A stretch of 64,000 bases of DNA from Candidatus Acidiferrales bacterium (GTDB lineage: Bacteria; Acidobacteriota; Terriglobia; Acidiferrales; UBA7541): NCBI GenBank assembly GCA_036514055.1, contig DATBXX010000008.1:29060-93059 (forward strand). Direction: 5' to 3'. The notes beneath the pieces are model-generated. The model was not told the DNA's origin. It was given only the letters and a program-made list of their open reading frames with translations, and ran no database searches. A program made the position numbers and the translations under genes. Each line of letters starts with the position of its first letter. Within the stretch, counting starts at the first letter, position 1. Positions 3,706 through 40,274 of this stretch are shown here, piece by piece.

Positions 3706-4683
3706 ATGCACCGGAAAATTCTTGCGATTTCATTTGCAGTTGCGGTGGCCGCGCTGCCCAGTTTCGCGCAGAGCTCGAGTTTGAATGGCACCTGGAAACT
3801 GAACAACGCCAAGAGCTCCTTCGGCCAATTCCCGCCGCCCGCAAGCGAGACCGATACCATCGGGGTAAGCGGCACAGACTTCAAGCAGCAAGTGACCAGC
3901 GCCGGTGCGCAAGGCAGTCAGACCTATACGCGCTCCTGCACAGTCGACGGTAAGGAAGTAACCCTCTCTCCCGACGATCCGCGCGGCCACCTGGGCGCAA
4001 TTACGCTGTCGAAGATTCAGTGCGCCTGGCAAGGCACTTCAGTCGTTTTCACCGAGACCGCAAACCTTCGTGGCACCGAGCTGACTGATCGACTGACGTT
4101 TTCGGCTTCCCACGACGGCAAGACCATGACCATGGATTCGCACATCACCTCGGCGACAATCAACGGCGACAGGAAGCTCGTCTACGACAAACAGGACGGG
4201 TCGGCGGCGATGAATGATCCAGGGGCGATGGCCGCAACGCCCGGCGCCGCTTCGATGATTCACACTGGTGGTTCTCAGCCGAACCTCACCGGCACATGGA
4301 AATTGGATATACCCAAGAGCAATTTCGGCCAGATCCCCCCACCCACAAGCCAAACCGATACGATTGACGATAGCGAGCCTGCGGTCAAAATCGTAGAGGA
4401 CCAGAAAGGCGGCATGATGGGCGACATGAACCTCACCTCCACACTCAGCACCGACGGAAAGGAGACCACCTCCCCGGGCATGGGAGGCGCCCCGACAACG
4501 AGCACCGCGCATTGGGACGGCGTCGCGCTGGTCGTTGACTCAAAGCTCAGCTTCCAGGGTACCGACGTCAAGGTTAAGGATACCTACACCCTGAGCAGCG
4601 ACGGGAAAACGCTCACCGAAGTCACTCACGTTGAATCGGGAATGGGGAATTTCGATTCGACCAGCGTGTACGACAAGCAGTAG
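3706..4683 (+). CDS. Secreted protein with two tandem copies of a roughly 150-aa GTWKL-type (lipocalin-like) module
   Basis: Start moved to MHRKILAISFAVAVAALPSFAQ, a signal peptide. The two halves are parallel: LNGTWKLNNAKSSFGQFPPPASETDTI...VYDKQ and LTGTWKLDIPKSNFGQIPPPTSQTDTI...VYDKQ. Confidence 0.75.
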   Translation: MHRKILAISFAVAVAALPSFAQSSSLNGTWKLNNAKSSFGQFPPPASETDTIGVSGTDFKQQVTSAGAQGSQTYTRSCTVDGKEVTLSPDDPRGHLGAITLSKIQCAWQGTSVVFTETANLRGTELTDRLTFSASHDGKTMTMDSHITSATINGDRKLVYDKQDGSAAMNDPGAMAATPGAASMIHTGGSQPNLTGTWKLDIPKSNFGQIPPPTSQTDTIDDSEPAVKIVEDQKGGMMGDMNLTSTLSTDGKETTSPGMGGAPTTSTAHWDGVALVVDSKLSFQGTDVKVKDTYTLSSDGKTLTEVTHVESGMGNFDSTSVYDKQ

Positions 4684-15078: not shown

Positions 15079-15486
15079 TTACCGGTGGCCTCCGCCGTGG
15101 AACCCGCCTCCACCGTGAAATCCACCGCCGCCGTGAAACGCGCCGCCACCTCGCGGCGCTACGCCGTGGAATCCGCCGCTAAATCCACGCCCAACTGGAC
15201 CGCGGAAACCAGGGCGCCCGTAGAAGCCAGGACCCGGTCCGAAGCCACGACCATAGAAGCCGTGGAACCACGGACCCGCGCCGATAAAGACGCCTCCGGA
15301 AAAGTAGCTAGGGCCATAGTATCCGTACGGGGCGCAGGCATACGGAGCGTACCCGTAGTAGCCATAGGCGCAGACCGGAGCCGGACCGGCGAAAACCGGA
15401 CCAACCCGAACCGCGACCTGTGCGTTGGCAGCACCGGCCATCACTGCGAAAAGTCCTATCAGAGCCACATACTTTAGGTATCTCAT
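15079..15486 (-). CDS. Small secreted Gly/Tyr/Phe/His-rich low-complexity protein
   Basis: Signal peptide MRYLKYVALIGLFAVMAGAANAQ, then a YGYYGYAPY.../GFYGRGFGPGPGFYGRPGF segment. The tail is GGGAFHGGGGFHGGGGFHGGGHR. A sigma-54 promoter lies about 110 nt upstream. Confidence 0.75.
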   Translation of the reverse strand: MRYLKYVALIGLFAVMAGAANAQVAVRVGPVFAGPAPVCAYGYYGYAPYACAPYGYYGPSYFSGGVFIGAGPWFHGFYGRGFGPGPGFYGRPGFRGPVGRGFSGGFHGVAPRGGGAFHGGGGFHGGGGFHGGGHR

Positions 15487-15596
15487 TGCAAAACCTCCTC
15501 GCCATTCTCGCTATCGCGTTCGATTCGACAGCTGGCATCCAACCTGTCTTGCCCGTTCTCTGCCGCATCGGTGTTGCTGACGCTCACTCGCTATAA

Positions 15597-15612
15597 GGCA
15601 AGGGACGTGCCA
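15597..15612 (-). promoter_or_regulatory. Sigma-54 (-24/-12) promoter
   Basis: The minus strand reads TGGCAC-GTCCC-TTGCC, with exact GG-N10-GC spacing and a perfect TGGCAC and TTGC. It is 111 nt upstream of the ATG at 15486. Confidence 0.75.
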
Positions 15613-16172
15613 AACCTGGTCGATCGCCGCAGGCAGCAAACTCTGTCAAATCATGAACCTACAGAAGGACACCAAAACAGAGGGCCGGGCTGTGCTCGCT
15701 AGCTGGTGGCTGGAATCAACCGAGGTGCTTGAATTCAACCATATCGGGAAAAGGCGCAGGAGGCAGGCCACTCAAGGTCGGCCTTAGCGAGTCAAACGCT
15801 CAAGCCCACCCCGGATTCAGAACCGCAGAGTAAACTTTCGCTCGTTAGGTACTCGAACTTAGAGATTTCCAGCCCGCTTGGAAAAGGTCTGCGGCCTGGG
15901 AAATAACGGCTCGCTTTCAGCAGTCCGGACAGACCGCGCGAGTCGGAATATGCCGAGAGTTTTGCAGCCGATCGAGTTATCAACTTTGTGACAGATTTAC
16001 ACGAGTTGAACGGGAAGGATGATCGCAAAAAATCTGCTCGCTCTATCTCGAGCGTGAGCACACCCAAGGCGCGGGATCGGATTTTAGCGAGGAACGCAGC
16101 CCGGGGGTCGAGTCCCTGAAATTAGCGATTTCGGGGATGAGCCCGGACAAGTCGATCTCGTAACCGAACCGG

Positions 16173-16643
16173 TCATTTTGGTCCGTAGAAGGTTTTGTAA
16201 CACTGTGAAATATCCGCATTGGCCTCGACGATGCATTCACCATACAGGCGTGCCTTGTCGTCTTCATTTAGCTCGTTGATCTTGGTGCCTAGCGCGTCTA
16301 CTTCTGCATCCAGCTTCGCCTTGGCCGCCCTGGCGTGGGCCTCCCAGCAGGCTTTGGCGGCCGCCCCATCAACCTCCGCGTATCCGCCATTCTTGGTGTA
16401 GGTCAAGCGGTCGATGCAGTCGCGTAGCTTGGCAAGCAGAGGGTCATCGGTGGGCTGAGTTGCCCACTCGCGAAGGTCATCATCATCGCTTTTAATTTTT
16501 TCCTGTTGGGCACGGGACTCACGGTAGTGCGCAAGGCCGGCGACTGACCCGACGTAGCCCAATAGGGCCAGCAGCAGCGCCGCAAGGACTGCAAAGAACG
16601 GCCAATGCCTCCGTAGTGTCAGCCTGATCGGGATAGTGTCCAT
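16173..16643 (-). CDS. Membrane-anchored hypothetical protein
   Basis: One N-terminal TM helix (WPFFAVLAALLLALLGYVGSVAGL) followed by a helical, Cys-containing domain. Confidence 0.6.
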   Translation of the reverse strand: MDTIPIRLTLRRHWPFFAVLAALLLALLGYVGSVAGLAHYRESRAQQEKIKSDDDDLREWATQPTDDPLLAKLRDCIDRLTYTKNGGYAEVDGAAAKACWEAHARAAKAKLDAEVDALGTKINELNEDDKARLYGECIVEANADISQCYKTFYGPK

Positions 16644-16661
16644 CGGCGGCAGAATAGCACG

Positions 16662-17048
16662 ATGCCGGTGCGATGTTTGGGTGGCTCAACATCGAGAACG
16701 GGAACCCGCCAAAAGATTTCAAAATGCGGGCAAATGCACGGTCCCGGGCCAGGTGCAGTTGCCGCCCAGCGTCAGCATCGAAACGTATTTTGCCATGGGC
16801 TGATGCCGGATTCGCAGGGCTTCATCTTTGTAGGCCACGAGCCCGGTTATGATTCCCGCTTCTACATCCCGGACACTCACAGCGGCACAGCGCGCCCGCT
16901 GACGCCGGAACGCCATCGCGCCGATACGCGGGTTGCCATATCGCCGGACGGCAACAGATTCGCCGCTCGGGAAATGAGCAGCCGCGCCTGGAAAACGTGC
17001 GAGGTCGACCCAGGGGCGTCTGCGTCCATTAGGCGCTCAGACCTGTAA
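16662..17048 (+). pseudogene. Fragment of a PD40/TolB-like beta-propeller protein
   Basis: MPDSQGFIFVGHEPGYDSRFYIPDTHSGTARPLTPE ... ISPDGNRFAA are PD40-repeat-like strings. Only about 100 aa are present, and there is no credible N-terminus. Confidence 0.4.
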
Positions 17049-17095
17049 CGTTGGCTGCGCGGAAATCGCCATATCTACGGGGCCCGAGTTCGTAG

Positions 17096-18457
17096 ATGGA
17101 GGCTTCGATGAACGCTTCCTTGCGCTGGGTTGCTGCTCCCGGCCCATTCATCTGCGGCCCGGCTGCTGGGCAATATTATGACCCCGGGCCTCCCGACGCT
17201 GCCACGCGGTGGCGTCCCGGCGATCCGGAAATCGTGCGCCTGGATTACGTGGAAGGCGACGTGCGCCTCCGGACAAGCGACAGCAAGAATCAAAAGGCCG
17301 CGAGGCAGTCGTGGGCACAGGCGCAAGCTGGGATCCCGATCGAAGCGCGCTTCATGCTCGTCACTGGTACCGTGCGCGCCGAAGTCGACTTTCAGAATGG
17401 CTCGGTTCTCTTCCTTGCCGACAATTCAGTGCTGGTTTTTGGCGAACTCACCGATTTGAACGGGCCGATAGACACCCAGGTCATATTGGTTACCGGCACG
17501 GCGACCATCGACGTGCAGCCCGCTCGAAGTGAGGTGTTTCGGATCCAGTCGCGCAGCCTGGACGCAATTACCGTGACCTATCCGGACAAAGCCTATCTTC
17601 GCTTAGAGAGCTTCCTGGACGGAACGAAAGTGACCCCGCAGCAGGACACTGGCGCAACCACTAACGGGAATCAGAAGACCCAAGCGCGGGCAGGGCAAAC
17701 AATGACTTACGAGAACGGTAAATTGGTCGATGACGGCGCAACGACCTCTCGTGGTCCCACTGATTGGGACAGGTGGGCGGGAGGTCGTATCGATGCCAGG
17801 CAGAGTGCGATTGCCGCAGCGCTCAAGGCATCAGGACTCTCCTCTCCGATTCCCTCGTTGGCCTATCTCGATGAAAACGGGATTTTCTTCGCCTGCCCGC
17901 CGTATGGAACGTGCTGGCAGCCCAAGGAGCAGGATCCGGAATCTCGACCTCAGAACGCACAAAATTCTGGGAGCTCCATCGAGAAAACCGACTTTTCGTC
18001 TTGCTCCGAGACGAAGGTGATCTCAGCGTTGGATCCTGGAACGAAGCAAGGGATCGAGCATTTCGAAACCACGACTCAGTATTGGGATTGGGCACTTTGC
18101 GGAAGCGGGAGATGGGTCTTCCAAAATGACCGCTACGTTCTGGTTCTGCCCGATGAAAAGCGGAAGGTCGACTGGCAGCGTCATCCATCAGTAGCCTGGG
18201 TCCGGGTGGGAAACACGACGGGATTCGTTCCCAAGGACCCGGGGGACAAAAACGGCCGGCCGCCCATCAATCTGAAGTACGGACTCTTTGTGCCCTCGAA
18301 CGGGCAGGATCAACCGGGCGAGCGAATTTCTGTGAACGCATCGGACAAAGTGACGCTCCTGGCAACCGCTCCTGAGGGATTTCGCGAGCTCGCGTCGTAT
18401 TTTCCGCCGTCGCAACCACCCAAGATCAACGCGGAGGTGCTGAGGGGCACTCCGTAA
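17096..18457 (+). CDS. Hypothetical protein with FecR-like beta-rich N-domain
   Basis: VRLDYVEGDVRLRTSD...GTVRAEVDFQNGSVLFLADNSVLVF resembles the N-domains of the 29098 and 31429 proteins. No clear signal peptide at the annotated start. Confidence 0.6.
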   Translation: MEASMNASLRWVAAPGPFICGPAAGQYYDPGPPDAATRWRPGDPEIVRLDYVEGDVRLRTSDSKNQKAARQSWAQAQAGIPIEARFMLVTGTVRAEVDFQNGSVLFLADNSVLVFGELTDLNGPIDTQVILVTGTATIDVQPARSEVFRIQSRSLDAITVTYPDKAYLRLESFLDGTKVTPQQDTGATTNGNQKTQARAGQTMTYENGKLVDDGATTSRGPTDWDRWAGGRIDARQSAIAAALKASGLSSPIPSLAYLDENGIFFACPPYGTCWQPKEQDPESRPQNAQNSGSSIEKTDFSSCSETKVISALDPGTKQGIEHFETTTQYWDWALCGSGRWVFQNDRYVLVLPDEKRKVDWQRHPSVAWVRVGNTTGFVPKDPGDKNGRPPINLKYGLFVPSNGQDQPGERISVNASDKVTLLATAPEGFRELASYFPPSQPPKINAEVLRGTP

Positions 18458-18488
18458 TTCAGCCCAATTGACAGCAAGAGAGAAGGGC

Positions 18489-18540
18489 TGATGCGCCCGC
18501 GGTGATTCGAACACCGGACCTCCTGGTACTTAACCAGAGG
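18489..18540 (-). repeat. Non-functional 3' fragment of tRNA-Arg (att-like direct repeat)
   Basis: 18492-18521 is identical to 22613-22642 (30 nt). The similarity continues, with mismatches, through the anticodon stem. The anticodon triplet reads AAG, there is no 5' half, and the terminal ACCA reads ATCA. Confidence 0.75.
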
Positions 18541-18565
18541 ATCTGTGCTTGTATCACATTGCTAA

Positions 18566-18841
18566 CTATGGTGGATAACGATAAATAGGGTGCTTCATCG
18601 TATGAAATTCCGAACCGGTCTCGACGGTGATCCACTGAACCCAGTTCTGGTAGCCATTCATAAACATCCGAACGGCGTGTTTCCCCGGCTTCAGTCTCAC
18701 CGTCGTCGGCGTGAAACCGACATCAGCATCATCTATGTTCAGGTTGGCTCCCGTTGGTTCTGACGTGAGGTAAACCGACGTTTCTGGAGAACTCGGGGAT
18801 GCGTTTTGTGGGCGGGCGTTCGACGGAGCCACTGCCGCCAA
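18566..18841 (-). CDS. PEGA domain protein (start uncertain)
   Basis: SVYLTSEPTGANLNIDDADVGFTPTTVRLKPGKHAVRMFMNGYQNW is PEGA-like. The annotated start is a TTG. The in-frame upstream sequence reads ATG-TAG followed by a signal peptide. Confidence 0.55.
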   Translation of the reverse strand: MAAVAPSNARPQNASPSSPETSVYLTSEPTGANLNIDDADVGFTPTTVRLKPGKHAVRMFMNGYQNWVQWITVETGSEFHTMKHPIYRYPP

Positions 18842-19067
18842 GACGAAGAGCGCGGCCCAAGCAAGGAATCTTAACTACATTGGTCTGTTTCGACTCATTT
18901 CTGCACCCTCGCAAAGAAGACGCTAACGGATCTATGCGCGGCAGGATAGCACGCAACGCGGAAATATCGTCATGGACCAAGTGCGCAGAGCCAAACAACT
19001 ATGAGAACAATCTGACACGGATTCCTGCGAATCATTCGGTCATTCGAGTGGACCTGGTAGCGGGAAT

Positions 19068-19097
19068 AAAAAAGGGAACCGATCAAGGTTCCCTTTT
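19068..19097 (-). terminator. Rho-independent terminator (bidirectional hairpin)
   Basis: GGGAACC-GATCAA-GGTTCCC, flanked by an A-run and a T-run. It lies about 55 nt downstream of the response-regulator stop. Confidence 0.7.
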
Positions 19098-19149
19098 GCC
19101 TGTCTGCCATCTCTGTTCCCGCCGCGTCGGCAGGTGGTTGAAGCGCAGT

Positions 19150-20118
19150 TTATCCTACGGGTTGCGGGGCCACCACATTTCGTTGCACTCTCGGGAACGC
19201 AACTTTGGTGAACCAGAACTCATTGAGGCTTTTGACCAGCCTCTCGAACTCCCCTAATTCCGCCGGTTTGGTGAGATAGCAACTCGCCATGAGTTGATAG
19301 CTTTGAGTGATGTCACTTTCCGAGTTGGATGTGGTCAGGACAACTATCGGGATTACGCTAAGTCGGGGGTCCATCTTTAGCTGGGCCAGAACTTCAAGTC
19401 CATCTAATTTGGGCATCCGCAGGTCGAGCAGGATAAGCTGCGGGCGAGGTGCGTCCAGATACTTTCCTTGGTATTTCAGAAACGCCATAGCCTCAAGCCC
19501 ATCAGTCACCACATGAAGGTGCACAGTCTTATTGATCCCAGACAAAACTTCCCGCATCAAACGGGCGTCACCTTCATTGTCATCCACTAGCAGTATATCC
19601 ATGGACCTTGCTGAGAAATCTGGCACAGCTTCGTTCGCTTCTGTCCGCCATTTGAATGGAGGTAGTAAATCGATGGCTGCCGTCCCCTTCTCGTCATAGC
19701 GAGGCAACTCAACCTTTGTCAGCCAGAAGTCATTGATGGTCGTCATCAGCGTCTCATAGTCGTCCAAGTTCACGGGCTTGACGAGAAAGCAGTTCGCCTG
19801 TAGCCCGTAGCTATTTGCAACATCCAGCCCTTCTTTTGATGTACTCAGGATAAAAATAGGCGTCGTTCTCAGGCTCGGATCGGCCTTAATCTGGGCCAGA
19901 ACTTCGCGGCCGTCCATTTTGGGAAGGTTGAGATCCAGCAAGATAAAATCCGGGCGGGGAGCATCAGAGAACGCTCCGTGATGCCTCAAAAACGCCATAG
20001 CCTCCGAGCCGTCGTTTGCGACGTGCAGTTGAACCGACGGATTAACCTTGCGGAATGCTTCCTGTGTCAGCCGAACGTCGCCGGGATTATCTTCGACCAG
20101 AAGAACGTGTATGGCCAC
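19150..20118 (-). CDS. Tandem-receiver (REC-REC) response regulator with no output domain
   Basis: Two Rcp1/CheY-like receiver domains: VLLVEDNPGDVRL...FILLDLNLPKMDGREVL...FLVKP and ILLVDDNEGDARL...LILLDLRMPKLDGLEVL...YLTKP. GTG start with GGAGAA 8 nt upstream. Confidence 0.85.
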   Translation of the reverse strand: MAIHVLLVEDNPGDVRLTQEAFRKVNPSVQLHVANDGSEAMAFLRHHGAFSDAPRPDFILLDLNLPKMDGREVLAQIKADPSLRTTPIFILSTSKEGLDVANSYGLQANCFLVKPVNLDDYETLMTTINDFWLTKVELPRYDEKGTAAIDLLPPFKWRTEANEAVPDFSARSMDILLVDDNEGDARLMREVLSGINKTVHLHVVTDGLEAMAFLKYQGKYLDAPRPQLILLDLRMPKLDGLEVLAQLKMDPRLSVIPIVVLTTSNSESDITQSYQLMASCYLTKPAELGEFERLVKSLNEFWFTKVAFPRVQRNVVAPQPVG

Positions 20119-20387
20119 CTTATATTCTCCAGCTGACCTTATAGGAGGGTCGGCGGTGACACCGTTTCGGAAGGGACCTCCAGTGTGACGCGCTCACCAG
20201 CAAATTCAAGCATGGCATATGAAATTCATATGAACTGGTTAACATCAACAGGGTTCAATGCGTTGCGTAGATCAGCGAGCCCGCTGTTGGCGAGATTACT
20301 GTAGTTAGGTTCGCCGTCCTTGACTTGCCCGCCCCACCGGTCACAATCAAGGCACTTAATTTGGTCTAGGCCCTCTTGGGAGGACAT

Positions 20388-20627
20388 ATGTCCATTCATA
20401 TCCTCAGTGAACTGATCGGATTCCAAGTTCACCGCGAAATCGGATCCGGTCCGATCTTTCAGCTAAACGAACTAGAATCGCTTCAGGACAAGGCGGAGTT
20501 GCGCGGGCTCTGTGGCAAAGACTTTGAAAAAGTCCTCTATGCTGTTAGGGCACTGCGTCTGGAGCTAGAGAAAGCCAAAACTGTAATCGCTGAGTCGAAA
20601 CTTGAGATTCTGTTTCTTGAAAAATAG
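20388..20627 (+). CDS. Small coiled-coil hypothetical protein (79 aa)
   Basis: ATG preceded by GGGAGG (20378-20383). The C-terminal half is heptad-like (LRLELEKAKTVIAESKLEILFLEK). Confidence 0.5.
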   Translation: MSIHILSELIGFQVHREIGSGPIFQLNELESLQDKAELRGLCGKDFEKVLYAVRALRLELEKAKTVIAESKLEILFLEK

Positions 20628-21095
20628 AAACCCGGTTATCACGGATGCGATGGTGGAGGCAAACTTAGTCCGGATAGCCACGCCCAGGAAATTACTGGCA
20701 TCGTGGCTGGAGAACTGCGCCGAGCCAACGTTGCGTACTTTATAAATCACTTCCAGGGCTTCGCCCCTCCCGCCGCTTGGCCCGCCATTCTCGTTTCCAT
20801 CGCAGAACAGATTTCCAGTGCTCGAATCTTGAGGCTTCTCGCAGTTTATAAACACGACCTTGGGAGTCTTGTGCATACCATTAGTCGATTTTGGCGAAAT
20901 CCAAACCATCTTGCTCCCAGTTGCTTGTTACGAACTGTCCTTCTCCGATCTCGGCGCGTAGCTGTGGCTGGCTCTCCATTCCGGACAAACTCTTGTGTGG
21001 CTGAAGACAAAACGCACCGAAGGACCTGATCGTCACAGGACGATGGCCGGAGTTGGTAATCGCAATCACCGTTAGGCTCCGCCAGGTAAGTGAAC

Positions 21096-21530
21096 ATGAA
21101 TGACAGACAACTGACGTTTCTCGGTATAGAGAAGAGATCGCTGACAAGATTTCCCGAACTATCAGCACGAGTTGAGCAGACATTCGGGTCTTATTACGAT
21201 TTGAAAGCGGAGATTCCGGGAGCCTACCCAATCTTCGAGGGTGTCCTCAAGAAATTAATCTTAGAGCTTCTCAAAACAGAGAAAGCTGACCCACTCTTGC
21301 CGAAACTTTTCGCATTTGTGGAAGAAATGGCGAAGTCGCCTGACTGGGATGTGACCGACCTATTAGGTATCGCGATTCTCGAACCACTAGTCTTTGAGCG
21401 CGAAAGCATTCGGCGGGCTCGGAGATACATGGGAGTAAAAACTAGGACTTCAGCTATCGGAACGGCGCAAGCCAGGGGCTGGGAGGAAAAGCTTCCCGGC
21501 GAAGCGGCGAGCGGAGAAAACGGACACTGA
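21096..21530 (+). CDS. Hypothetical cytoplasmic alpha-helical protein
   Basis: Protein-like composition within an AT-rich block. The layout PGAYPIFEGVLKKLILELLK...LFAFVEEMAKSPDWDVTDLLGIAILEPL reminds me of orphan immunity-type proteins. This is an unverified recollection. Confidence 0.55.
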   Translation: MNDRQLTFLGIEKRSLTRFPELSARVEQTFGSYYDLKAEIPGAYPIFEGVLKKLILELLKTEKADPLLPKLFAFVEEMAKSPDWDVTDLLGIAILEPLVFERESIRRARRYMGVKTRTSAIGTAQARGWEEKLPGEAASGENGH

Positions 21531-21571
21531 GAACAGGGCTCAACGCTGCGCGAGCGAAAAGGGGAAACGAA

Positions 21572-22006
21572 ATGGACATCTATTGCGTGATACTCAGGTC
21601 GCAACCGAATAAGATTATAAAAATGCATAACGTGAATCTTGAAATGGTGTCTGACCCGTTGGAACCTCAAGGGCGCGGGCTGCTGATCTTTACCACCGCC
21701 AACGGAAAAGAAGCGGGATGCTTCGAAGGAAGAGACGTTTCCGGATATTGGCGCGACGATTACGCGACTGTGGAGGTTCCAAAGCCGAATAAACGGTCTA
21801 CAAGAGGACTCCTTGCGGCAGCATTGATAAGTTTTCCAGTCTTATTTCTACTCGATTGGACTGGGATATACGGCAGGCACTTCCCTAAGAGTTGGGAGGA
21901 AGCGGTAATAGAGATTGGCATCAACCTAGGATGGACAATAATTCTCACACTCACATATTATTTTGTGATGATGCGTCCGTTCGCGCCCCCCAAACAACAG
22001 ATCTGA
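21572..22006 (+). CDS. Hypothetical membrane protein (two C-terminal TM helices)
   Basis: GGGGA Shine-Dalgarno about 7 nt upstream of the ATG. TM segments LLAAALISFPVLFLLDW and INLGWTIILTLTYYFVMM. Confidence 0.55.
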   Translation: MDIYCVILRSQPNKIIKMHNVNLEMVSDPLEPQGRGLLIFTTANGKEAGCFEGRDVSGYWRDDYATVEVPKPNKRSTRGLLAAALISFPVLFLLDWTGIYGRHFPKSWEEAVIEIGINLGWTIILTLTYYFVMMRPFAPPKQQI

Positions 22007-22609
22007 TCGCCTTCGGGAACCAAATGCGCGGGCTGGTTTACCCGCTGACATACGGTGGCGACGGCAAGCCAAGAGTTAGCGCGTTCTCGATTCAACTCCG
22101 GGAAGCCAGAGCGGAGTGGCGTAGGCGAAACCCGAAGGAACCTACCAGGTGGACGCGAAGCGTCACCGAGTATTCTATCTAAACCGACTTGATCCCACGA
22201 ACGTACAACCAACCCCAGCCACTGCACTGGTCGCACTGCGCCAACTCTTTCCTTCCGGTGGCCGCGCAACTCGGGCACTCCGTCCAATCCCCGTCAGTCA
22301 TTGCGCTTTGATAGGTTCCGCTTCACGTTTTTCCCGTGGCGAGATGGCGGCCACACCTGTGGCCGATCCTAGTCTCGGAACGGTACGGAGTTGTGCAGTT
22401 ATTGCAGACGGCCACTGGTATAGGTTCTTTGTCCATCGCTGGCCTAGTCTAGCTGTTCGTGCGGCATCGGCGACACCGAACGCTGCTGTCAGCCGAAATA
22501 GTCTAATTCCCCACCAGAGGATCCCATACGATCAACATACGATATAAACAGGGCCGTCACCCTCGCGGCTCTGCGGATCTCAGAATACTCAATATTTATA
22601 GGGTAAATA

Positions 22610-22686
22610 TGGTGCGCCCGCGGTGATTCGAACACCGGACCTTCTGGTTCGTAGCCAGACGCTCTATCCAGCTGAGCTACGGGCGC
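22610..22686 (-). tRNA. tRNA-Arg (anticodon ACG)
   Basis: The reverse complement reads GCGCCCGTAGCTCAGCTGGATAGAGCGTCTGGCTACGAACCAGAAGGTCCGGTGTTCGAATCACCGCGGGCGCACCA. It is 77 nt, folds as a cloverleaf, has an encoded CCA end, and is close to E. coli tRNA-Arg(ACG). Confidence 0.95.
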
Positions 22687-22889
22687 ACTCGGAGCGCACA
22701 GTTTATGGCTTTTGGATCAACCTTGGCAACGGCCAATTGAGGGGCTTGACTTCGATCGCGGCCGATTTGGCCATCATTTAAGCTTGACTTGCCGGACTGA
22801 CAGATCGCCGGCCAGGGACGATCACTTCGCGCCTGGTCGAACCAGCAACGTGCGGGGAGTGGCCGACGGTCGGTGACAGGCCCTTGCGA

Positions 22890-24335
22890 TTACCGCGTGG
22901 GTACCTTGATGGGAGAACCGGGATAATAGACAATTACATACAAATCGTTCGCCAAGAGATTGGTTCCTTCGAATCCGTTTCCAAAAGAAAAATTCCACTC
23001 AAACCCATCGGCGGGCCCCGCAGTCTGGCAAGGCGATATGGCGGTTTCCGCTTCGCATGCCCAGTAAAGATAAGGCTGAATATCGTGGAAGGGACCGACC
23101 TTGACAGCTGGGACTGCGACCACGGATTCGCCTCGGCTGAGCCCAAATCGTCTGTAGAACAACTCCCCCATCGGGCTTGCCGTACAGTCGTAGCCGGTCA
23201 TCCCTTTCGCACCGATGCTACAGGAAGGATCGGGCAGCACAGTCTCGGGCAACTGCCAGTTCGTTTGAGCGAGGTACCCGCGGCCTTGATCGGCTTTGTT
23301 CATGGCGGCAACCCACTGCACCGCCGTCGCGTGCTCCATCGATCCATCCGGGTTGATATCTGCAACACCGAATGTTTGCTCGGCCGCAAGATTGGCGTCC
23401 GCGAGCCAAGTGATATTCACAATCGGGTCATAGACGGTTTGTCCGCCGGGGTTGATTTCCAGTCCTGTGCCGCTAGCCGGCGGCGTGCCGGGCAGCTTGC
23501 CTTTGATCATCGCTAGAGCATAGAGATGGTTCAAGGGTACGTTGGCCCCCTGAAACCCGGTGTTAAAGGAAAAGCTCACAAATCCCTGCTTCGGATCAGC
23601 GGCCGCAGATCCTGACCAATACAAATAGGGTTGGAAATTCTTGAATGATCCTACGGTATTGGCGGGGATGGGGACCGCAGTGTCCGGCTCGCGAAGACCC
23701 AACGAACCGTAATACAAAGATCCCAGAGCACTGCCCGAACAGTGGAACCCGAACGATTCGCCGTGCCGTCCCGTATGCGCGCAGCTGCTGTCTTCGGCCG
23801 GCGCGGTCGGAAGCTGCCAGTTATTGTGACCGAGGTAGCCGACCCCGTGGTCCAGCATGTTCATGGCATCGACCCATCGGAGCGCCGTCGCATAATCCAT
23901 CGAGCCATCCTTGTTGATGTTTGAAATTCCGAATGTTTGCGTACCAGCCAGATTGGCGTCGGCGAGCCAGGTGACGCTCAGATTGGGATCGTAGACCGTT
24001 TGACCGTCCGCAGCAGGAACCAACGCTGCGTTCGCTTGCGCCGCGGCGGGGGCTGAGTTGTTCGCCGCTCGACAAGCGTTCACCAGTTGCGGGCTTATGA
24101 CCGGCAAGGGTCTCGTTGCTGCCTTAGGCCGCGGTGTCCCTTGCACGATCGGGTTGAAACAGTCCAGAAGGAGCCCGTCGCGAGCCCCGCCGCCTAGAAC
24201 GAAGCCGGCATTCTCGCATGCCTTTCGGATCTGCTCACACGACGCGCGATCGGCTCGGACCGGTCTGGTGGTGCAGACCAGGTATAGCCCAAGGATGATC
24301 GAAACGTGAATGAAAGCAGATCGGCCGAACTGCAC
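22890..24335 (-). CDS. Secreted protein with two DUF1566 (Lcl C-terminal-like) domains
   Basis: Two repeated modules: GQTVYDP..[VI]TWLADANLA..QTFG...DGSM....A..WV.AMN......GYL...NWQLP. Start moved to the GTG at 24335, which gives the signal peptide MQFGRSAFIHVSIILGLYLVCTTRPVRA. Confidence 0.75.
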   Translation of the reverse strand: MQFGRSAFIHVSIILGLYLVCTTRPVRADRASCEQIRKACENAGFVLGGGARDGLLLDCFNPIVQGTPRPKAATRPLPVISPQLVNACRAANNSAPAAAQANAALVPAADGQTVYDPNLSVTWLADANLAGTQTFGISNINKDGSMDYATALRWVDAMNMLDHGVGYLGHNNWQLPTAPAEDSSCAHTGRHGESFGFHCSGSALGSLYYGSLGLREPDTAVPIPANTVGSFKNFQPYLYWSGSAAADPKQGFVSFSFNTGFQGANVPLNHLYALAMIKGKLPGTPPASGTGLEINPGGQTVYDPIVNITWLADANLAAEQTFGVADINPDGSMEHATAVQWVAAMNKADQGRGYLAQTNWQLPETVLPDPSCSIGAKGMTGYDCTASPMGELFYRRFGLSRGESVVAVPAVKVGPFHDIQPYLYWACEAETAISPCQTAGPADGFEWNFSFGNGFEGTNLLANDLYVIVYYPGSPIKVPTR

Positions 24336-25222
24336 GGAACTCTCCCGAGCTCGCAGGCACCGGCAAGGACGATACCTTAATTCTCGCAACTTTCAACTGA
24401 ACATTCTCCCGAATGAGCTAACAGCTGCACGCTGCGCGAGCACTCACAGGCTGTGCCCAATTTCTCGCCGATCGCGACCTTACTGATGGTCCCTTCGTTA
24501 TCGAGCTGCTGGAATGTCCTGCTGAGTTCATTGCGGAGTTAAAAGCGGGTCGACGAACTCTGGGTCGTGCCCACGAATGTTCGAGGCGCGAGCTGCGGAT
24601 CAGGCTAGCGATTCGCCAGCCCGCCCGATTGACCAGCGGAGACGGAAGCAGAGGCCTGGGGTGCACGCGGAGCCGCGGCTACAGCGATTGCATAAAGAAA
24701 AACCACCGTGGCTAAGGTCAGAAAAACTTTCCTCATATCGCACCCCAAGCATCAAGGCAGCTCGAACTCCGACAACAAGCACGATTCGTTCCATACCATC
24801 CGGCTTTATGTCGTTTCAGGTCAGCGATTTCGAATACGCCCTCCCCATCCGCCCTTGCATAAATTTCCGGCGATTGAAGAATTTGCTCTGCCACCCACTG
24901 CAGCTTCCAAAATGAAGTCTGAACATATCCGTAATCGAGCAGCCCCGGCATCCCTGATTTTCTGTAATTTAATACGAAGGATCCCTTAAGGGCGACTGTG
25001 GCAAACTTGACCGAGTCAAGCGCCTCCGGTAGTATCGTTTTAATGGATCGATACGCGCGTGCGGTACTTCATAGGACGGCTTGTTGTCCGGGCAGAGCTG
25101 CGACGGGAGCTTGATCCGAATCGTCTAATCACCATCGAATTTTCGGATTTTAGGAGCCCGCTCGCCGGCGCGAAGCCTGCTGGGCGGGATTTTTGTTTGC
25201 GCTTTCTCTGTACAGGGGATCC

Positions 25223-26091: not shown

Positions 26092-27411
26092 ATGAATTCG
26101 CCGTGGATCGCCGTTCGTCGGAGGCCTTCTGCCGAGATGCTTGACCGCAAACGATCGGCTGTGGACTGGATCGACGCCGTATGGCTGCTGTTCATCGCTG
26201 GATTGGCGTTTCTGCCCCCCATCAATGAGGTCCACAAACAGCTGATTTTGATTGCCTTCGCCTTGTTTCAGCTTTTCGAAGGCAAGCTGGTCGCGCGCCT
26301 TCCCCACGAGGGGCCGACCATCAGCGTGGGAATCAAGATCGTTCTTGCGACTCTGCTGCTGGACCACACCGGCGAGATGGGAATCAACAGCCCTTATTAT
26401 CCGATTTACTATTTGCCGGTAATCACGGCGGCCATCTACTACGGTCCCATCGGCACGCTGCTATGGAGTTCGGTTGCGTCGCTTGCCTACTGTTCGTTCC
26501 TGATCTCCGCACTGGAGGAGTACGAGTTGACGCCGGAGGCGGAAGGCTTGCTGGCGCTCCGTATTCTTTTCTTCTTCCTCGTCGCAATTCTGGTGAACCG
26601 CTTCGTGGTGGAAAATCGCCGCCAGGTCGCGCGATACCAGGCACTTTCGCAGACACTGGAGGAGACCAATCGCCAGCTGCAACGCGCCGAAGCCGACGCC
26701 CGCCGCTCCGAACGACTCGCTGCACTTGGCCAGATGTCGGCCGGCTTGGCTCACGAAATCCGCAATCCCCTGGGCGTAATCAAGGGTTCGGCCGAAATGC
26801 TCGTGCAGAAATTAAAGGACGCCAAGCCACTTGAAAGCGAGCTTGCCGGCTACATTTTCTCTGAAGTCAATCGCCTGAATGCTCTGGTAGCGCGATTCCT
26901 GGATTTCGCGCGCCCGTCAAACCTTGAATTGCGCCCGCTTCAGATCGCAAACGTTCTGGACCGCGCGCTTGACTCGGTGCAAGCACAGTCGCCGGAGTCA
27001 AAGGTCCGCATCGAGCGTCACTACGCCCCAGGGTTACCGAATATCCAGGTGGACGAACAGCTGTGCGAAAGCGTCTTCGTGAATCTAATTCACAACGCCT
27101 ACCAGGCGATGGAGGCCGCCCATGCGGCTGGGGAGACCCGCGAACGTGTCCTGCGACTGGGGATCGCGCCGGAATCTTCCAGTGGCAGGGCCGGCCTCGT
27201 CATCACCGTGGAAGATACCGGCCCGGGTGTTCCCGCCGAATTGAGGGAGCAGATCTTCAATCCATTCTATACCTCGAAAAAAGACGGTGTCGGCCTGGGA
27301 CTGGCAATCGTCGCTAAAATCGTGGACGGCCATCGCGGCTGGATAAAGCTTGACGACCACTCTCCACACGGCGCCCGTTTTCGCGTATTTCTCCCGAGCT
27401 CGCCGGCATGA
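26092..27411 (+). CDS. Sensor histidine kinase with a membrane-embedded (multi-TM) input region
   Basis: About 180 aa of TM helices, then a coiled coil, the H-box GLAHEIRNPLG, and HATPase motifs (NLIHNAYQA, DTGPGV, GVGLGLAIV). Confidence 0.9.
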   Translation: MNSPWIAVRRRPSAEMLDRKRSAVDWIDAVWLLFIAGLAFLPPINEVHKQLILIAFALFQLFEGKLVARLPHEGPTISVGIKIVLATLLLDHTGEMGINSPYYPIYYLPVITAAIYYGPIGTLLWSSVASLAYCSFLISALEEYELTPEAEGLLALRILFFFLVAILVNRFVVENRRQVARYQALSQTLEETNRQLQRAEADARRSERLAALGQMSAGLAHEIRNPLGVIKGSAEMLVQKLKDAKPLESELAGYIFSEVNRLNALVARFLDFARPSNLELRPLQIANVLDRALDSVQAQSPESKVRIERHYAPGLPNIQVDEQLCESVFVNLIHNAYQAMEAAHAAGETRERVLRLGIAPESSSGRAGLVITVEDTGPGVPAELREQIFNPFYTSKKDGVGLGLAIVAKIVDGHRGWIKLDDHSPHGARFRVFLPSSPA

Positions 27412-27472
27412 ACAAACCCAACATAAATCGCGAAACCGCGCCGCTTCGTCCGGCATAGAATAGACCGCCCGT

Positions 27473-28852
27473 ATGAAACAGGAAAAACCCTCGATCCTCA
27501 TCGTCGAAGACGAGCCGAAAATGCGGCGCGTACTTGAACTCCAGCTCGCCGACGAAGGATTTCACGCCCGCACGGCGGGCGACGCCGAAACGGGGCTGCA
27601 ACTCCTCGGCAAAGAACCGTTCGATGTCATCGTCACCGACTTCAAGCTCCCGGGCATGAGCGGCCTTGAATTCCTTCAGGCTGTCAAACGCGTGAACGCG
27701 GATCTGCCCGTCGTGATCATGACCGCCTACGGCACCGTTGAAACCGCGGTCGACGCCATGAAGGCGGGGGCGAGTGACTACGTGCTCAAACCGTTCTCGC
27801 TTGCCGAACTCGTTCTGGTAATCCGCAAGGAACTCGCCAGTCACCAACTGCGGCAGGAGAATCGTGACCTGCGCGAAGCTCTTGGCAAGCGTTACGAATA
27901 CAAGAACATCATCGCGCGTAGCGACAAAATGCAGGCCGTTCTCGCGCTCGTGGAGCGCGTCGCACCAACCAACTCAACCGTTCTCATCGGCGGCGAAAGC
28001 GGAGTCGGTAAGGATCTTGTCGCGCGCGCAATCCACGAACATTCGCAGCGTGCCGCAGGGCCGTTCGTTAAGATCAACAGCACCGCGATTCCGGAAACAC
28101 TGCTTGAAAGCGAGCTCTTCGGCTACGAAAAGGGGGCGTTTTCCGGCGCCACGGCGAGCAAGCCCGGTAAGTTTGAGCTTGCCGACAAGGGCACGCTCTT
28201 CCTGGACGAGATCGGCGACGTCCCCGGGGCGATTCAAGTGAAGCTGCTGCGAGTTCTGCAGGATCGCGAGTTCGAGCGTCTGGGCAGCACAAGAACCCTC
28301 AAAGTGGATGTCCGCCTGGTGGCGGCCACCAACCGCGATCTGCGCGCCGCGCTGGAAGAGGGCACGTTTCGCGAGGATCTCTATTACCGCCTGAACGTGG
28401 TCGCAATTGATATCCCGCCTTTGCGCGAGCACAAGGAAGATATCCCGGCGCTGGCCGACTTTTTCCTGGATAAGAGCGCACGCGAGTCCGGCAAAGCGCT
28501 CCAGGGCATTACGCCGCAGGCAATGAAGCTCCTGATGGATTATCACTGGCCCGGCAACGTGCGGGAACTTCAAAATGTTCTGGAACGTGCCGTCACCCTC
28601 TCCTCGGGTGCCATGCTCGATGTTCACGACATTCATATCGACAATGCACCTCGGCGGGCGTCCGCCGATTCCGCTGCAGCCCTGCCGCATGGGATGACCC
28701 TGGAGCAATGGGAAGAGGAAATGCTCCGCGAGGCGCTCCGGCGGGCCAACGGCAACAAGAGTCAGGCCGCTCGTGCTCTCGGCCTTTCGCGCAATGCGCT
28801 GCGCTACCGCCTCTCGAAAATGGGCGTCTCCGATCCCCCTGACAAGGAATAG
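27473..28852 (+). CDS. Sigma-54-dependent response regulator (NtrC family enhancer-binding protein)
   Basis: REC domain (ILIVEDEP...DVIVTDFKLPGMSG). AAA+ domain with GESGVGKD and the sigma-54 contact loop GAFSGA. C-terminal Fis-type HTH (SQAARALGLSRNALRYRL). Confidence 0.92.
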   Translation: MKQEKPSILIVEDEPKMRRVLELQLADEGFHARTAGDAETGLQLLGKEPFDVIVTDFKLPGMSGLEFLQAVKRVNADLPVVIMTAYGTVETAVDAMKAGASDYVLKPFSLAELVLVIRKELASHQLRQENRDLREALGKRYEYKNIIARSDKMQAVLALVERVAPTNSTVLIGGESGVGKDLVARAIHEHSQRAAGPFVKINSTAIPETLLESELFGYEKGAFSGATASKPGKFELADKGTLFLDEIGDVPGAIQVKLLRVLQDREFERLGSTRTLKVDVRLVAATNRDLRAALEEGTFREDLYYRLNVVAIDIPPLREHKEDIPALADFFLDKSARESGKALQGITPQAMKLLMDYHWPGNVRELQNVLERAVTLSSGAMLDVHDIHIDNAPRRASADSAAALPHGMTLEQWEEEMLREALRRANGNKSQAARALGLSRNALRYRLSKMGVSDPPDKE

Positions 28853-28893
28853 CTCCAGAGGGCATCTAGCCGCCGGTTTTTAGCCCCTGTATC

Positions 28894-28910
28894 GGTGGTT
28901 GAAAACCACC
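28894..28910 (+). promoter_or_regulatory. Candidate enhancer (UAS) palindrome
   Basis: Perfect 7-3-7 inverted repeat GGTGGTT-GAA-AACCACC, 120-137 nt upstream of the -24 element. No T-run follows it, so it is unlikely to be a terminator. Confidence 0.45.
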
Positions 28911-29029
28911 ACCCCCGCGCCAAATCCACCAGTAGCGGCCCGGGGTGCCCGAGTCCCAACTCCCGCCGAGATCCATGTAACTCGATGTTTTTATTGGTGT
29001 TATGCTTCACTCCAAGTGGCCCCGAACTT

Positions 29030-29045
29030 TGGCACTGTCCCTGCA
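29030..29045 (+). promoter_or_regulatory. Sigma-54 (-24/-12) promoter
   Basis: TGGCAC-TGTCC-CTGCA with exact GG-N10-GC spacing. It is 53 nt upstream of the ATG at 29098 and immediately downstream of the sigma-54 activator gene. Confidence 0.75.
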
Positions 29046-29097
29046 TTACACGGGTGGAGTTCAAAGTTCCCGGCCATCGTTTGCAGGGGGAGAAAAG

Positions 29098-31158: not shown

Positions 31159-31428
31159 GAAAACCCTCAGCCACATACCCTGGCAAGCACGGCCCAGCAG
31201 GATCGGGTCGGTTGACGTACCCGGCCCGGCTCGACGGGAAATTTCTGTGAATTCGAGCGGCTGGAACCGGCAAGAACAAATTCGGTCGGCGAGGGTTTCA
31301 TGAATGGGAGCATACGAGATTATGTCAAACTTACGCGTTGTAACATGGCTCGCGTGGCTGATGGTCTGGCAACGGCTCACGCGCTTGGTTATGGTGTCCA
31401 GGTTTCGGGGCACGACAGGAGAGACTAC

Positions 31429-35705: not shown

Positions 35706-35802
35706 GTTAGTCCTCGCAGGGACGCGCGCAAGCACGTAGTTTGTGCAAAGACTCTTGCGCAATTCTCGCAACAACCGGTCCAGGGCATCACGTAACTCAT
35801 CG

Positions 35803-39449: not shown

Positions 39450-40274
39450 CTACCCACCCGACTGGGCAGGGTCGTAGACGAGTCGGAAGGTGACCGGATT
39501 TTTGAAGCGCGGATTATCAATTTTCGTGGTCACGTAAAGTTGCTTGCTATCGGGAGACAATTCATAGGTTCGCGTGGTGCTGCCTTGGCGTCGGCCCGGC
39601 GTCACAGCGACCAGCTGCGTGCCCTGCCACTGCGCGACAGGCGGCGTGCTGGAGCTGTCGGCGCTTGAACCGTTTGAATCACTCGATGTTGGGCTCGTCT
39701 GCGAACTTGCGGACGGGCCAGGTGAATTCGGTTTCGACGAATCTTCTGATGTATACATCGCCAGCACTTCGCCTGATTCTCCGGTAACCTTCGCCGACGT
39801 TGCCGTCTGTTCAATCGTGAGCTGCGAAAGGTTGTTCGCCTGGTTGCCGGAGCCGTTCTGTCCGCGCCTGCCGCCTCCGCCGGTGCCTCCCATGCCACCG
39901 CGTTGTCCTCCCCAACCGCCACCGCCGCCCACGCCTCCGCCCATACCGCCACGGCCCCCGTTGCTGTTGGCGTTGGAATTCCCAGCCTGTTGCATGGCGG
40001 CGCGAGGGTCGTCGCTTTCATCCTTGTTCAAAGTCCAAGTGCCGGAGAGGTTGGGCTTGCCACCGATCAGCGCGCTGGCGGCAGATCGGGACGAAGCCGG
40101 AGGTTGATCAGAAGGCGTAGCCGCCGGCAAAGGACCCGCGCCTGCGGTCTGCGCGCCGGCACGCGTCGCAGGAAGCAACAGCGCAGCCGCGGCGAAAGCG
40201 GCGAGAATGAACCACCACAAAAATAACTCGGAGAGGCTCTGGTTTTTCCTGTCGTCGAGCGCTGTTGTCGTCAT
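39450..40274 (-). CDS. Secreted hypothetical protein with a GTW module and a Gly/Arg-rich insert
   Basis: TM/signal segment LFLWWFILAAFAAAALLLPA, then LSGTWTLNKDESDDP (similar to the 3706 protein), then GGRGGMGGGVGGGGGWGGQRGGMGGTGGGGRRG. It lies 68 nt upstream of the TBDR-like gene. Confidence 0.7.
   Translation of the reverse strand: MTTTALDDRKNQSLSELFLWWFILAAFAAAALLLPATRAGAQTAGAGPLPAATPSDQPPASSRSAASALIGGKPNLSGTWTLNKDESDDPRAAMQQAGNSNANSNGGRGGMGGGVGGGGGWGGQRGGMGGTGGGGRRGQNGSGNQANNLSQLTIEQTATSAKVTGESGEVLAMYTSEDSSKPNSPGPSASSQTSPTSSDSNGSSADSSSTPPVAQWQGTQLVAVTPGRRQGSTTRTYELSPDSKQLYVTTKIDNPRFKNPVTFRLVYDPAQSGG

Follow-up and report, generated by a model that had tools for sequence, protein, structure and literature searches.

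How the gene for a small, Gly-rich secreted protein is transcribed is the question raised by a locus in a stretch of 64,000 nucleotides (nt) from contig DATBXX010000008.1 of a Candidatus Acidiferrales bacterium (this whole stretch is referred to below as the window). The gene lies on the minus strand at 15079-15486, and an initial annotation of the window had placed a sigma-54 promoter and a short dyad upstream of it. Our analysis indicates, with a probability of roughly 0.8-0.85, that the segment 15741-15017 on the minus strand is a complete, monocistronic transcription unit that depends on sigma-54 and on an upstream enhancer. The promoter and the enhancer that carry this reading are described first, followed by the set of genes that share them, the candidate regulator, and the observations that weigh against the reading or parts of it.

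The sigma-54 promoter

The minus strand at 15612-15598 reads TGGCACGTCCCTTGC, in agreement with the sigma-54 consensus TGGCAC-N5-TTGC at all 10 specified bases, with zero mismatches. The promoter, TGGCAC-GTCCC-TTGC-C, occupies positions 15597-15612. It consists of TGGCAC at 15612-15607, the GTCCC spacer at 15606-15602, TTGC at 15601-15598 and a C at 15597, and has GG at -24 and GC at -12. The motif is intergenic and oriented toward the small gene, and its 3′ end is located 111 nt upstream of the ATG (15486). The initial annotation had described a perfect promoter at this position and distance, and the match is indeed exact and the only one of its kind in the 64 kb, with 0.11 expected from 100 shuffles of the window. 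When one mismatch is allowed, the window holds six matches as compared to 5.3 expected. Three of these retain the GG/GC core, namely 15612-15598, a site at 29030 (see below), and 34454-34440. The last is inside the open reading frame (ORF) 33396-35924, and the statement that only two sigma-54 sites in the window are intergenic holds under this definition.

The promoter is also found in other genomes. The 400 nt upstream of the gene were scanned in 77 homologous loci from other genomes, with the GG-N10-GC core required and at most two mismatches allowed. A sigma-54 motif is present in 42 of them, nearly always 48-134 nt before the ATG, against a background of 0.136 per 420 nt. In an alignment of 33 non-redundant homologous promoters, the flanking bases, which played no role in the selection of the sites, are conserved as well. 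GTT precedes TGGCA (T at -1 in 97% and T at -2 in 91% of the promoters), and A/T (ATT) follows TTGC. The GTT flank is also present at the window promoter at 15612. Conservation of both the motif and its unselected flanks gives this site the appearance of a functional promoter rather than of a chance match, and provides strong comparative evidence for 15612-15598 as a working sigma-54 promoter. Transcription from sigma-54 promoters usually starts 12 nt downstream of the GC, which would place the start of this transcript near 15586.

Another sigma-54-like motif, TGGCAGGCTCGCTGC, is located at 40303-40289 on the minus strand. It has two mismatches and keeps the GG/GC core, and its 3′ end is 15 nt upstream of the ORF 39450-40274. 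This motif has neither an enhancer match nor the flanking bases of the family.

The two-site enhancer

An element of about 40 bp, comprising two sites, is located at 15741-15703 on the minus strand. Site 1 of this putative enhancer, or upstream activating sequence, is TGGTTGAATTCAAGCA (15726-15741, minus strand), and its 5′ end is 129 nt upstream of the T of TGGCAC. Site 2 is GGTTGATTCCAGCCACC (15705-15721, minus strand) and starts 109 nt upstream of the promoter. The dyad GGTGGCTGGAATCAACC that had been noted at 15705-15721 is present and corresponds to site 2. It is only the promoter-proximal half of the element, however, and site 1 (15741-15726) had been missed. The dyad alone is not discriminating, as the 5+5 pattern is common in the window: GGTGG-N7-CCACC with at most one mismatch occurs nine times, as compared to 2.8 expected, and several of the copies are inside coding sequence. 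The caution in the initial annotation that the dyad could be due to chance is therefore appropriate for the 5+5 pattern, but not for the larger conserved element, which is far above chance and from which the significance derives.

In upstream regions aligned on the promoter, site 1 has the consensus TGGyyGAAAAnCAsCA and is conserved in at least 35 homologous loci. It starts 128-137 nt before TGGCA in most of them and 107-117 nt before it in a minority. These spacing variants differ by about 21 nt, or about two helical turns, so that the helical phase is kept. Site 2 begins 19-21 nt after site 1 in the homologous loci, and in the nearest relatives (loci L001, L002, L003 and L010; loci in other genomes are given L numbers) it is a perfect dyad, GGTGG-ATTnCAG-CCACC. 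BLAST similarity to the closest relatives begins only at 15614/15615, and the enhancer is thus a conserved island in otherwise diverged sequence.

A profile was made from 35 enhancers of other genomes, with the window excluded, and the window was searched on both strands with nhmmer. The two best matches are 28895-28934 on the plus strand (E = 2.9e-6, 23.9 bits) and 15741-15703 on the minus strand (E = 4.1e-5, 20.3 bits). The third match (E = 0.0023) is the reverse reading of 15741-15703, the next one has an E value of 0.16, and the best score in 100 dinucleotide-preserving shuffles of the window is 11.0 bits. The two promoters had been suggested to share a related upstream element, and the recovery of exactly these two segments by an independent profile argues that the suggestion is correct. 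With its dyad symmetry, its position within the 80-150 bp range, and its conserved spacing and orientation, the element at 15741-15703 is predicted to be an enhancer for an activator of the NtrC type.

Between the enhancer and the promoter there is an A/T-rich box, TTCATGATTTGACAGAGTTT (15638-15657, minus strand), which was noticed by eye. Positional information in the 33 non-redundant loci reaches 0.5-0.9 bit at positions -44, -40, -30 and -29, and the box may be a candidate site for a DNA-bending protein of the integration host factor (IHF) or HU type.

It could be asked whether the sigma-54 match and the dyad are mere coincidences, with the small gene being read from an ordinary sigma-70-type promoter. 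Ten of the 100 window shuffles contain at least one exact sigma-54 match, and the frequency of the 5+5 dyad, taken by itself, would also be compatible with this explanation. It is contradicted by the comparative data, however, since dozens of genomes show the same motif, flanking bases and enhancer, at a fixed distance from one another. Moreover, no sigma-70-like site is found on the minus strand between 16200 and 15486. We consider a chance origin of these elements to be exceedingly improbable.

L008 has a second strong enhancer match (1744-1784, E = 6.4e-6), which is located 1.7 kb before the small gene and is not accompanied by a sigma-54 motif at the expected spacing.

Organization of the transcription unit

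The predicted 5′ untranslated region covers about 100 nt (15487-15586, minus strand), its extent being set by the expected transcription start. It contains GGAGG as ribosome-binding site (15498-15494), 8 nt ahead of the ATG, and no Rfam family is found in the leader at threshold. The coding sequence (15079-15486, minus strand) specifies 135 residues, a signal peptide followed by a mature chain of 113 residues. An intrinsic terminator is predicted by folding at 15055-15017 on the minus strand, a hairpin with a 17-bp stem leading into UUUU. Its folding energy is -39 kcal/mol (z-score -4.65), and none of 200 shuffles folds as well. The preceding gene (16173-16643, 156 residues) has a terminator-like site of its own at 16053-16036, upstream of the promoter. 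With its own terminator downstream and this terminator-like site upstream, the small gene forms a monocistronic, self-contained unit.

The possibility of a riboswitch or another leader RNA was considered and rejected. The only match is to the Prion_pknot family (RF00523), at 15103-15136 on the minus strand. It is below threshold (21 bits versus a gathering score of 39, E = 0.4) and lies within the coding repeat, on the DNA for the (GGGGFH)n tail of the protein. This stretch resembles the coding sequence of the prion octarepeat PHGGGWGQ, a copper-binding repeat, and the match is probably an effect of composition.

Homologues of the gene for the 156-residue protein and of the FecR-like gene at 17096 are absent from the 80 loci, and synteny is limited to four close relatives. 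In the close relative L010, the small-protein gene (4001-4427) is split over two frames (4001-4309 and 4053-4427), which is probably due to an error in long-read assembly rather than to a pseudogene.

Genes preceded by the enhancer

Two enhancer patterns were used in genome-wide scans. The pattern of the window small gene (class A) is GGTTGAA-N4-AGC-N5-7-GGTGG-N4-CAGCCA, and that of class B, to which the enhancer at 28895-28934 belongs, is TGGYYGARRANCACC-N10-SAAANNCACC, scanned over 185,579 genomes. At least 119 matches are found for class B, as compared to about 2 by chance, and almost all of them are in Acidobacteriota. Class A has 37 matches, with about 0.8 expected, and the two patterns together have more than 150, with about 3 expected. 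Complete Terriglobia chromosomes, such as OY969555.1 and OY968796.1, are among the carriers of the motif. A genome-wide scan for enrichment before genes of secreted Gly/aromatic proteins had been proposed in the initial annotation, and the present scans with the enhancer patterns show a large excess for both classes.

Gene contexts were obtained for 80 class B loci out of the at least 119 matches. A sigma-54 motif is found 109-139 nt downstream of the enhancer in 65 of the 80, with about 0.02 expected per site. The downstream genes fall into a few classes. Members of the small-protein family follow in 32 loci, all with the sigma-54 motif, and FecR/DUF6600 genes follow in 18 loci, 17 with the motif. 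A secreted protein of 572 residues that starts with (GGGGGFH)n and has no Pfam match (to be referred to as the GH-repeat protein) is encoded in four loci (L162, L168, L198 and L208), three with the motif. An extracytoplasmic function (ECF) sigma factor follows in five (L180, L192, L207, L216 and L235), all with the motif, and a protein with PilZ and TonB_C domains in seven (L169, L179, L184, L203, L227, L230 and L233), two with the motif. The class B matches outside Acidobacteriota that were followed up (in Phycisphaerales, Saprospiraceae, Bdellovibrionota and a Thermoplasmatales archaeon) lack a promoter and appear to be coincidental. For class A, 32 of the 37 matches have a promoter, and 31 of these are located before small-protein genes.

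Different classes of genes carry the enhancer within one genome. One metagenome bin contains both a small-protein locus (L163) and a DUF6600 locus (L174), and another contains a GH-repeat locus (L198) and a DUF6600 locus (L240). In addition, the GH-repeat protein begins with the same (GGGGGYH)n-type repeat that ends a DUF6600 protein in L199, and the small protein, the DUF6600 proteins and the GH-repeat protein share a repeat module. The presence of the enhancer before small-protein and FecR/DUF6600 genes in single genomes, as well as after orthologues of the activator described in the next section, argues for one regulon, as had been suggested from the two sites in the window. These data support the notion that the enhancer marks one set of co-regulated secreted-protein genes across soil Acidobacteria.

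The candidate regulator

The second enhancer of the window is part of a gene cluster at 26092-33303 on the plus strand. The first gene of interest (26092-27411, plus strand) encodes a histidine kinase, with about four to five membrane-spanning segments by hydropathy and no large periplasmic domain. Its partner (27473-28852, plus strand) is an NtrC-type sigma-54 activator (bacterial enhancer-binding protein) with a receiver domain, an AAA+ domain and an HTH_8 domain. The AAA+ domain carries GAFSGA, the loop for contact with sigma-54. This is the only sigma-54 activator in the window, and it scores below the NCBIfam cut-offs for AtoC, NtrC, PrsR and ZraR.

The class B enhancer, TGGTTGAAAACCACCA-CCCCC-GCGCCAAATCCACCA (28895-28934, plus strand), begins 43 nt beyond the activator stop codon and 134 nt upstream of the promoter at 29030. 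This promoter, TGGCACTGTCCCTGC (29030-29044, plus strand), had been described as perfect, and has in fact one mismatch (CTGC). It precedes the gene for a secreted FecR and DUF6600 protein of 686 residues (29098-31158, plus strand), the tail of which, GGGSHSGGGHSGGGGHGGGHH, resembles that of the small protein. The region 29098-33303, previously taken as one gene, consists of two ORFs. The second (31300-33303, plus strand) encodes another DUF6600 protein, with the true start likely further in, at a signal peptide MIIRKIK..., and no enhancer or promoter of its own is detected. The orthologue of the 29098-31158 protein in L199 ends in (GGGGGYH)n...GGGHR.

Activators were compared in 80 related loci (755 kb searched), 22 with orthologues of 27473-28852 (at least 59% identity) and 58 with other activators as controls (at most 51%). 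The enhancer profile has a match in 8 of the 22 orthologue loci and in none of the 58 controls. In each of the eight, a sigma-54 motif is found 117-143 nt after the enhancer, followed by an orthologue of the 29098-31158 FecR/DUF6600 protein. The order kinase, activator, enhancer, sigma-54 motif and DUF6600 gene is thus the same in all eight loci, and is found in none of the controls. The enhancer is within 120 nt of the activator stop codon in five loci, and the kinase is conserved beside the activator in orthologous loci.

The relative L010 (about 80% nucleotide identity) provides a link between the two loci. There, the kinase gene and the small gene are separated by about 3 kb and are read in divergent directions. 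In comparison, the window carries about 9 kb extra (15616-24666) between the small gene and the kinase region. It is probable that the two-component/DUF6600 cluster and the small gene were once adjacent.

These associations make the activator 27473-28852, with the kinase 26092-27411, a candidate for the regulator of the small gene, and we consider the assignment to be probable, though far from secure. The initial annotation had attributed the regulon to this activator. This is in keeping with the position of the enhancer after eight of its orthologues and after none of the 58 others, while the class A variant of the enhancer leaves room for a close paralogue (see below).

The extra segment 15616-24666 looks like an inserted island. 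It contains a tRNA-Arg(ACG) at 22610-22686 on the minus strand, and the GC content dips to 50-52% at 19-22 kb, where there are few long ORFs. Its genes encode a double-receiver response regulator (19150-20118), a PEGA-domain protein (18566-18841), an Lcl_C-domain protein (22890-24389) and a weak FecR/DUF6600-like protein (17096-18457).

Proposed mechanism

In the proposed mechanism, sigma-54 RNA polymerase would form a closed complex at TGGCAC-N5-TTGC (15612-15598). A phosphorylated activator of the NtrC type would assemble on the two adjacent sites of about 16 bp (15741-15726 and 15721-15705) and contact the polymerase through looping of the DNA, possibly aided by the A/T-rich box at 15657-15638, with ATP being used for promoter opening. 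The transcript would begin near 15586, comprise the leader of about 100 nt, the GGAGG ribosome-binding site and the frame for the 135-residue pre-protein, and end at the hairpin at 15055-15017. The pre-protein would then be exported by Sec. The activator would most likely be the response regulator 27473-28852, acting with the membrane-embedded kinase 26092-27411, and transcription of the FecR/DUF6600 genes from the matching enhancer and promoter (28895-29044) would likewise be under its control.

The small secreted protein

The signal peptide of the small protein covers residues 1-22, MRYLKYVALIGLFAVMAGAANA, and ends in ANA, with Q as the next residue. The mature 113 residues are 34% Gly, 22% Phe, Tyr and Trp, 11% Pro, 6% Arg and 5% His. 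There is no Asp or Glu, and the isoelectric point is 9.8. The C-terminal tail has the form (GGGGFH)n-GGGHR and ends in GGGGFHGGGGFHGGGHR.

The protein belongs to a large family, with at least 5,636 protein clusters at E values of 1e-3 or less and at least 544 loci in species-representative genomes, none of them covered by a Pfam or NCBIfam model. The members are overwhelmingly from Acidobacteriota (Acidiferrales, Terriglobales and Bryobacterales), while a small number carry the label Gammaproteobacteria (for instance Dyella) or that of another phylum; the labels of metagenome bins could not be checked. Cultured bacteria with a member of the family include Granulicella sp. dw_53 (L047) and Dyella jejuensis (L030). 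The family has an invariant core, PVCxYGYYxYxPYACAPYGYYGPxxFxGGVFIGAGPWFH, with two invariant Cys residues. It is followed by a variable stretch of Gly, Arg and aromatic residues and by a tail ending in ...GGFHGGG(H/R)R.

The mature protein is predicted to be cationic and intrinsically disordered, with one probable disulfide, Cys39-Cys51, and to be exported by Sec. From its composition, the protein may have a role in the envelope or the extracellular matrix as part of a stress-type response, in which the His-rich tail could bind metal ions or protons.

The small protein was also considered as a fragment or paralogue of the DUF6600 proteins, and this was rejected. The best BLASTP match to the 29098-31158 protein has an E value of 0.28 and reflects composition only. 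The two kinds of proteins have their composition and the Gly/His tail in common, without detectable homology.

Observations against the proposed reading

Several observations weigh against the reading given above, or against parts of it. Some of them concern the promoter itself. The sigma-54 gene, rpoN, is absent from the 64-kb window, and the clear IHF consensus that would be expected between the enhancer and the promoter is not found there, conservation in this region being weak across the 33 loci. In addition, 17 homologous small-protein genes (L009, L016, L018, L020, L023, L025-L027, L036, L037, L041, L055-L057, L059, L075 and L076) have an ECF-type promoter, CAACYYTY-N12-17-GTTY (for example, GCAACTTTTC...CGTTCAAAT), instead of a sigma-54 promoter. 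It is located 45-155 nt upstream of the ATG, with a background of 0.005 per 250 nt, and no locus has promoters of both types. Another 22 homologous loci show neither type. Control by sigma-54 is therefore not universal in the small-protein family, and different lineages seem to have placed the same gene family under two different alternative sigma factors.

Five of the loci with ECF-type promoters (L009, L020, L023, L027 and L041) have an enhancer-like two-site element, AAGTGGTTGAATTCGGGCAGGATGGCTGAAATCAGCCACTCC, about 10 nt upstream of the -35 box and no sigma-54 motif. The element is about 140-180 nt upstream of the ATG. So close to the -35 box, a sigma-54 activator should not work.

The element abutting the ECF-type -35 box in these loci would be easier to understand if the conserved 40-bp segment were the operator of another transcription factor, or a repeat dispersed in Acidobacteria, and not an enhancer. 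The five of seven copies before PilZ-TonB_C genes that have no detectable sigma-54 motif could be explained in the same way. On the other hand, 65 of 80 class B and 32 of 37 class A matches of the scans have the element in one orientation and at a set distance from the sigma-54 motif, far above the expectation of about 0.02 per site, and the variants in spacing, with their difference of about 21 nt, preserve the helical phase. The gene classes behind the element are also few, and it follows the orthologues of one activator. We regard an operator or a repeat as very unlikely.

Other observations concern the activator, for which the evidence of identity is genomic association. Class A enhancers are seen only before small-protein genes (31 of 33 matches in Acidobacteriota), while class B precedes several gene classes, including the one adjacent to the activator. 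A single genome can carry both classes, as is the case for L294 and L185 on contig CAWFSW010000003.1. Moreover, a related genome (L081, 4890-6392) encodes an orphan activator that is 79% identical to 27473-28852 and has almost the same C-terminal helix-turn-helix, with no kinase, enhancer or DUF6600 gene next to it. It could be either a relocated orthologue or a paralogue. It is for these reasons that the assignment of the activator is made with reserve.

The same facts would fit an arrangement in which the promoter and the enhancer are as described here, but class A is bound by a closely related activator encoded outside the window, and 27473-28852 serves only class B sites such as 28895-28934. 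The two classes have, however, the 5′ half-site GGTkGAww and the 3′ half-site CAsC(C)A in common, and a mixed profile finds both in the window with E values of 4e-5 or less. The small-protein gene carries a class B enhancer in many other genomes, no second activator is present in the window, and in L010 the small gene is just 3 kb from this two-component system. A separate activator for class A is thus conceivable, although we think it rather unlikely, and 27473-28852 is preferred here as the regulator of both classes.

A third group of observations concerns the function of the small protein, the proposal for which draws on amino-acid composition. The protein has no match in Pfam or NCBIfam at E values of 0.01 or less, and a profile search of PDB sequences gives nothing below an E value of 0.2. 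In an AlphaFold2 model, obtained with an alignment of 29 sequences, the mean predicted local distance difference test (pLDDT) score is 48, and only the helix of the signal peptide is confident.

As to the inducing signal, an envelope-type response is suggested by the membrane-embedded kinase, the presence of an ECF sigma factor gene among the targets, and the 17 homologues with an ECF-type promoter.

Comparison with known systems

The closest analogue of the system is ZraSR-ZraP of Escherichia coli and Salmonella, in which a two-component sigma-54 activator drives a small periplasmic accessory protein and the adjacent operon in response to zinc and envelope stress (PMC4987338). An NtrC-type response regulator, sigma-54 promoters, and the combination of a small exported protein with an adjacent operon are found in both, and the neighbouring, divergently oriented zraP and zraSR have a parallel in L010, where the two-component operon and the small gene are arranged in this way. 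The termini of ZraP are also rich in Gly and His. Nonetheless, the system does not belong to ZraSR-ZraP by any feature tested. The window activator scores 410.9 bits against the ZraR model, for which the cut-off is 760 (NCBIfam NF007689). The small protein, for which disorder is predicted, has no Pfam match of the ZraP/CpxP/Spy type or any other, a large periplasmic sensor domain is lacking in the kinase, and the enhancer motif is different. The regulon here also includes genes for FecR/DUF6600 proteins, GH-repeat proteins and ECF sigma factors.

The enhancer resembles those of NtrC, such as glnAp2, where tandem dimer sites are located about 100-140 bp upstream. Here, two adjacent sites with partial dyad symmetry are about 20 bp apart and 109-129 nt upstream of the -24 element, in one orientation and with helical phasing, and the window activator has the same architecture of receiver, AAA+ and Fis-type helix-turn-helix domains. 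The sequences are different, however, being TGGyyGAAAAnCAsCA or GGTGG-N7-CCACC rather than TGCACC-N5-GGTGCA. The activator has a score of 454 against the NtrC cut-off of 558.6 bits, and its putative targets are secreted low-complexity proteins, not nitrogen-assimilation genes.

The PEP-CTERM/PrsK-PrsR system, in which a sigma-54 two-component system controls many secreted proteins of biased composition in bacteria from soils and sediments, is similar in that such a system is wired to secreted low-complexity proteins. In comparison, the window activator scores 417.7 bits where the PrsR cut-off (TIGR02915) is 502.6, and the small protein ends in ...GGFHGGGHR, with no PEP motif or C-terminal hydrophobic anchor.

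The proteins with DUF6600 (PF20245) and FecR (PF04773) domains have the same type of enhancer and promoter as the small protein, a signal peptide, Gly/aromatic stretches and a (G4-7[FYS]H)n tail. The small protein differs from them in having no Pfam match and, as described above, only a compositional resemblance in BLASTP.

We found no literature on DUF6600, nor any describing such a sigma-54 regulon for Acidobacteria. The mechanism is of a classical kind, and the enhancer motif, the regulon and the small-protein family are previously undescribed.

Implications for Acidobacteria

Acidobacteria are among the most abundant bacteria in soil, and to our knowledge little is known of their gene regulation. 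The present analysis adds a defined enhancer sequence with a rule for its spacing, a candidate two-component system and a list of target gene classes. The enhancer motif can be used at once to annotate members of the regulon in metagenome-assembled genomes. The small-protein family also offers a natural example of one gene family under different alternative sigma factors, sigma-54 or an ECF sigma factor depending on the lineage. Proteins so far called hypothetical become testable as parts of one response, probably to envelope, metal or acid stress.

A more far-reaching and speculative idea, to which we give little weight, would be that this regulon, widespread in Terriglobia, has as its main outputs exported disordered proteins rich in Gly, aromatic residues and Arg, with (G4-7[FY]H)n repeats resembling the prion octarepeat. 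Such proteins might form a metal- or pH-responsive extracytoplasmic coat or condensate, switched by the membrane-embedded kinase via sigma-54 and rewired to ECF sigma factors in other lineages. If true, protection of the bacterial envelope would here rely on a novel type of material and not on a chaperone or transporter response.

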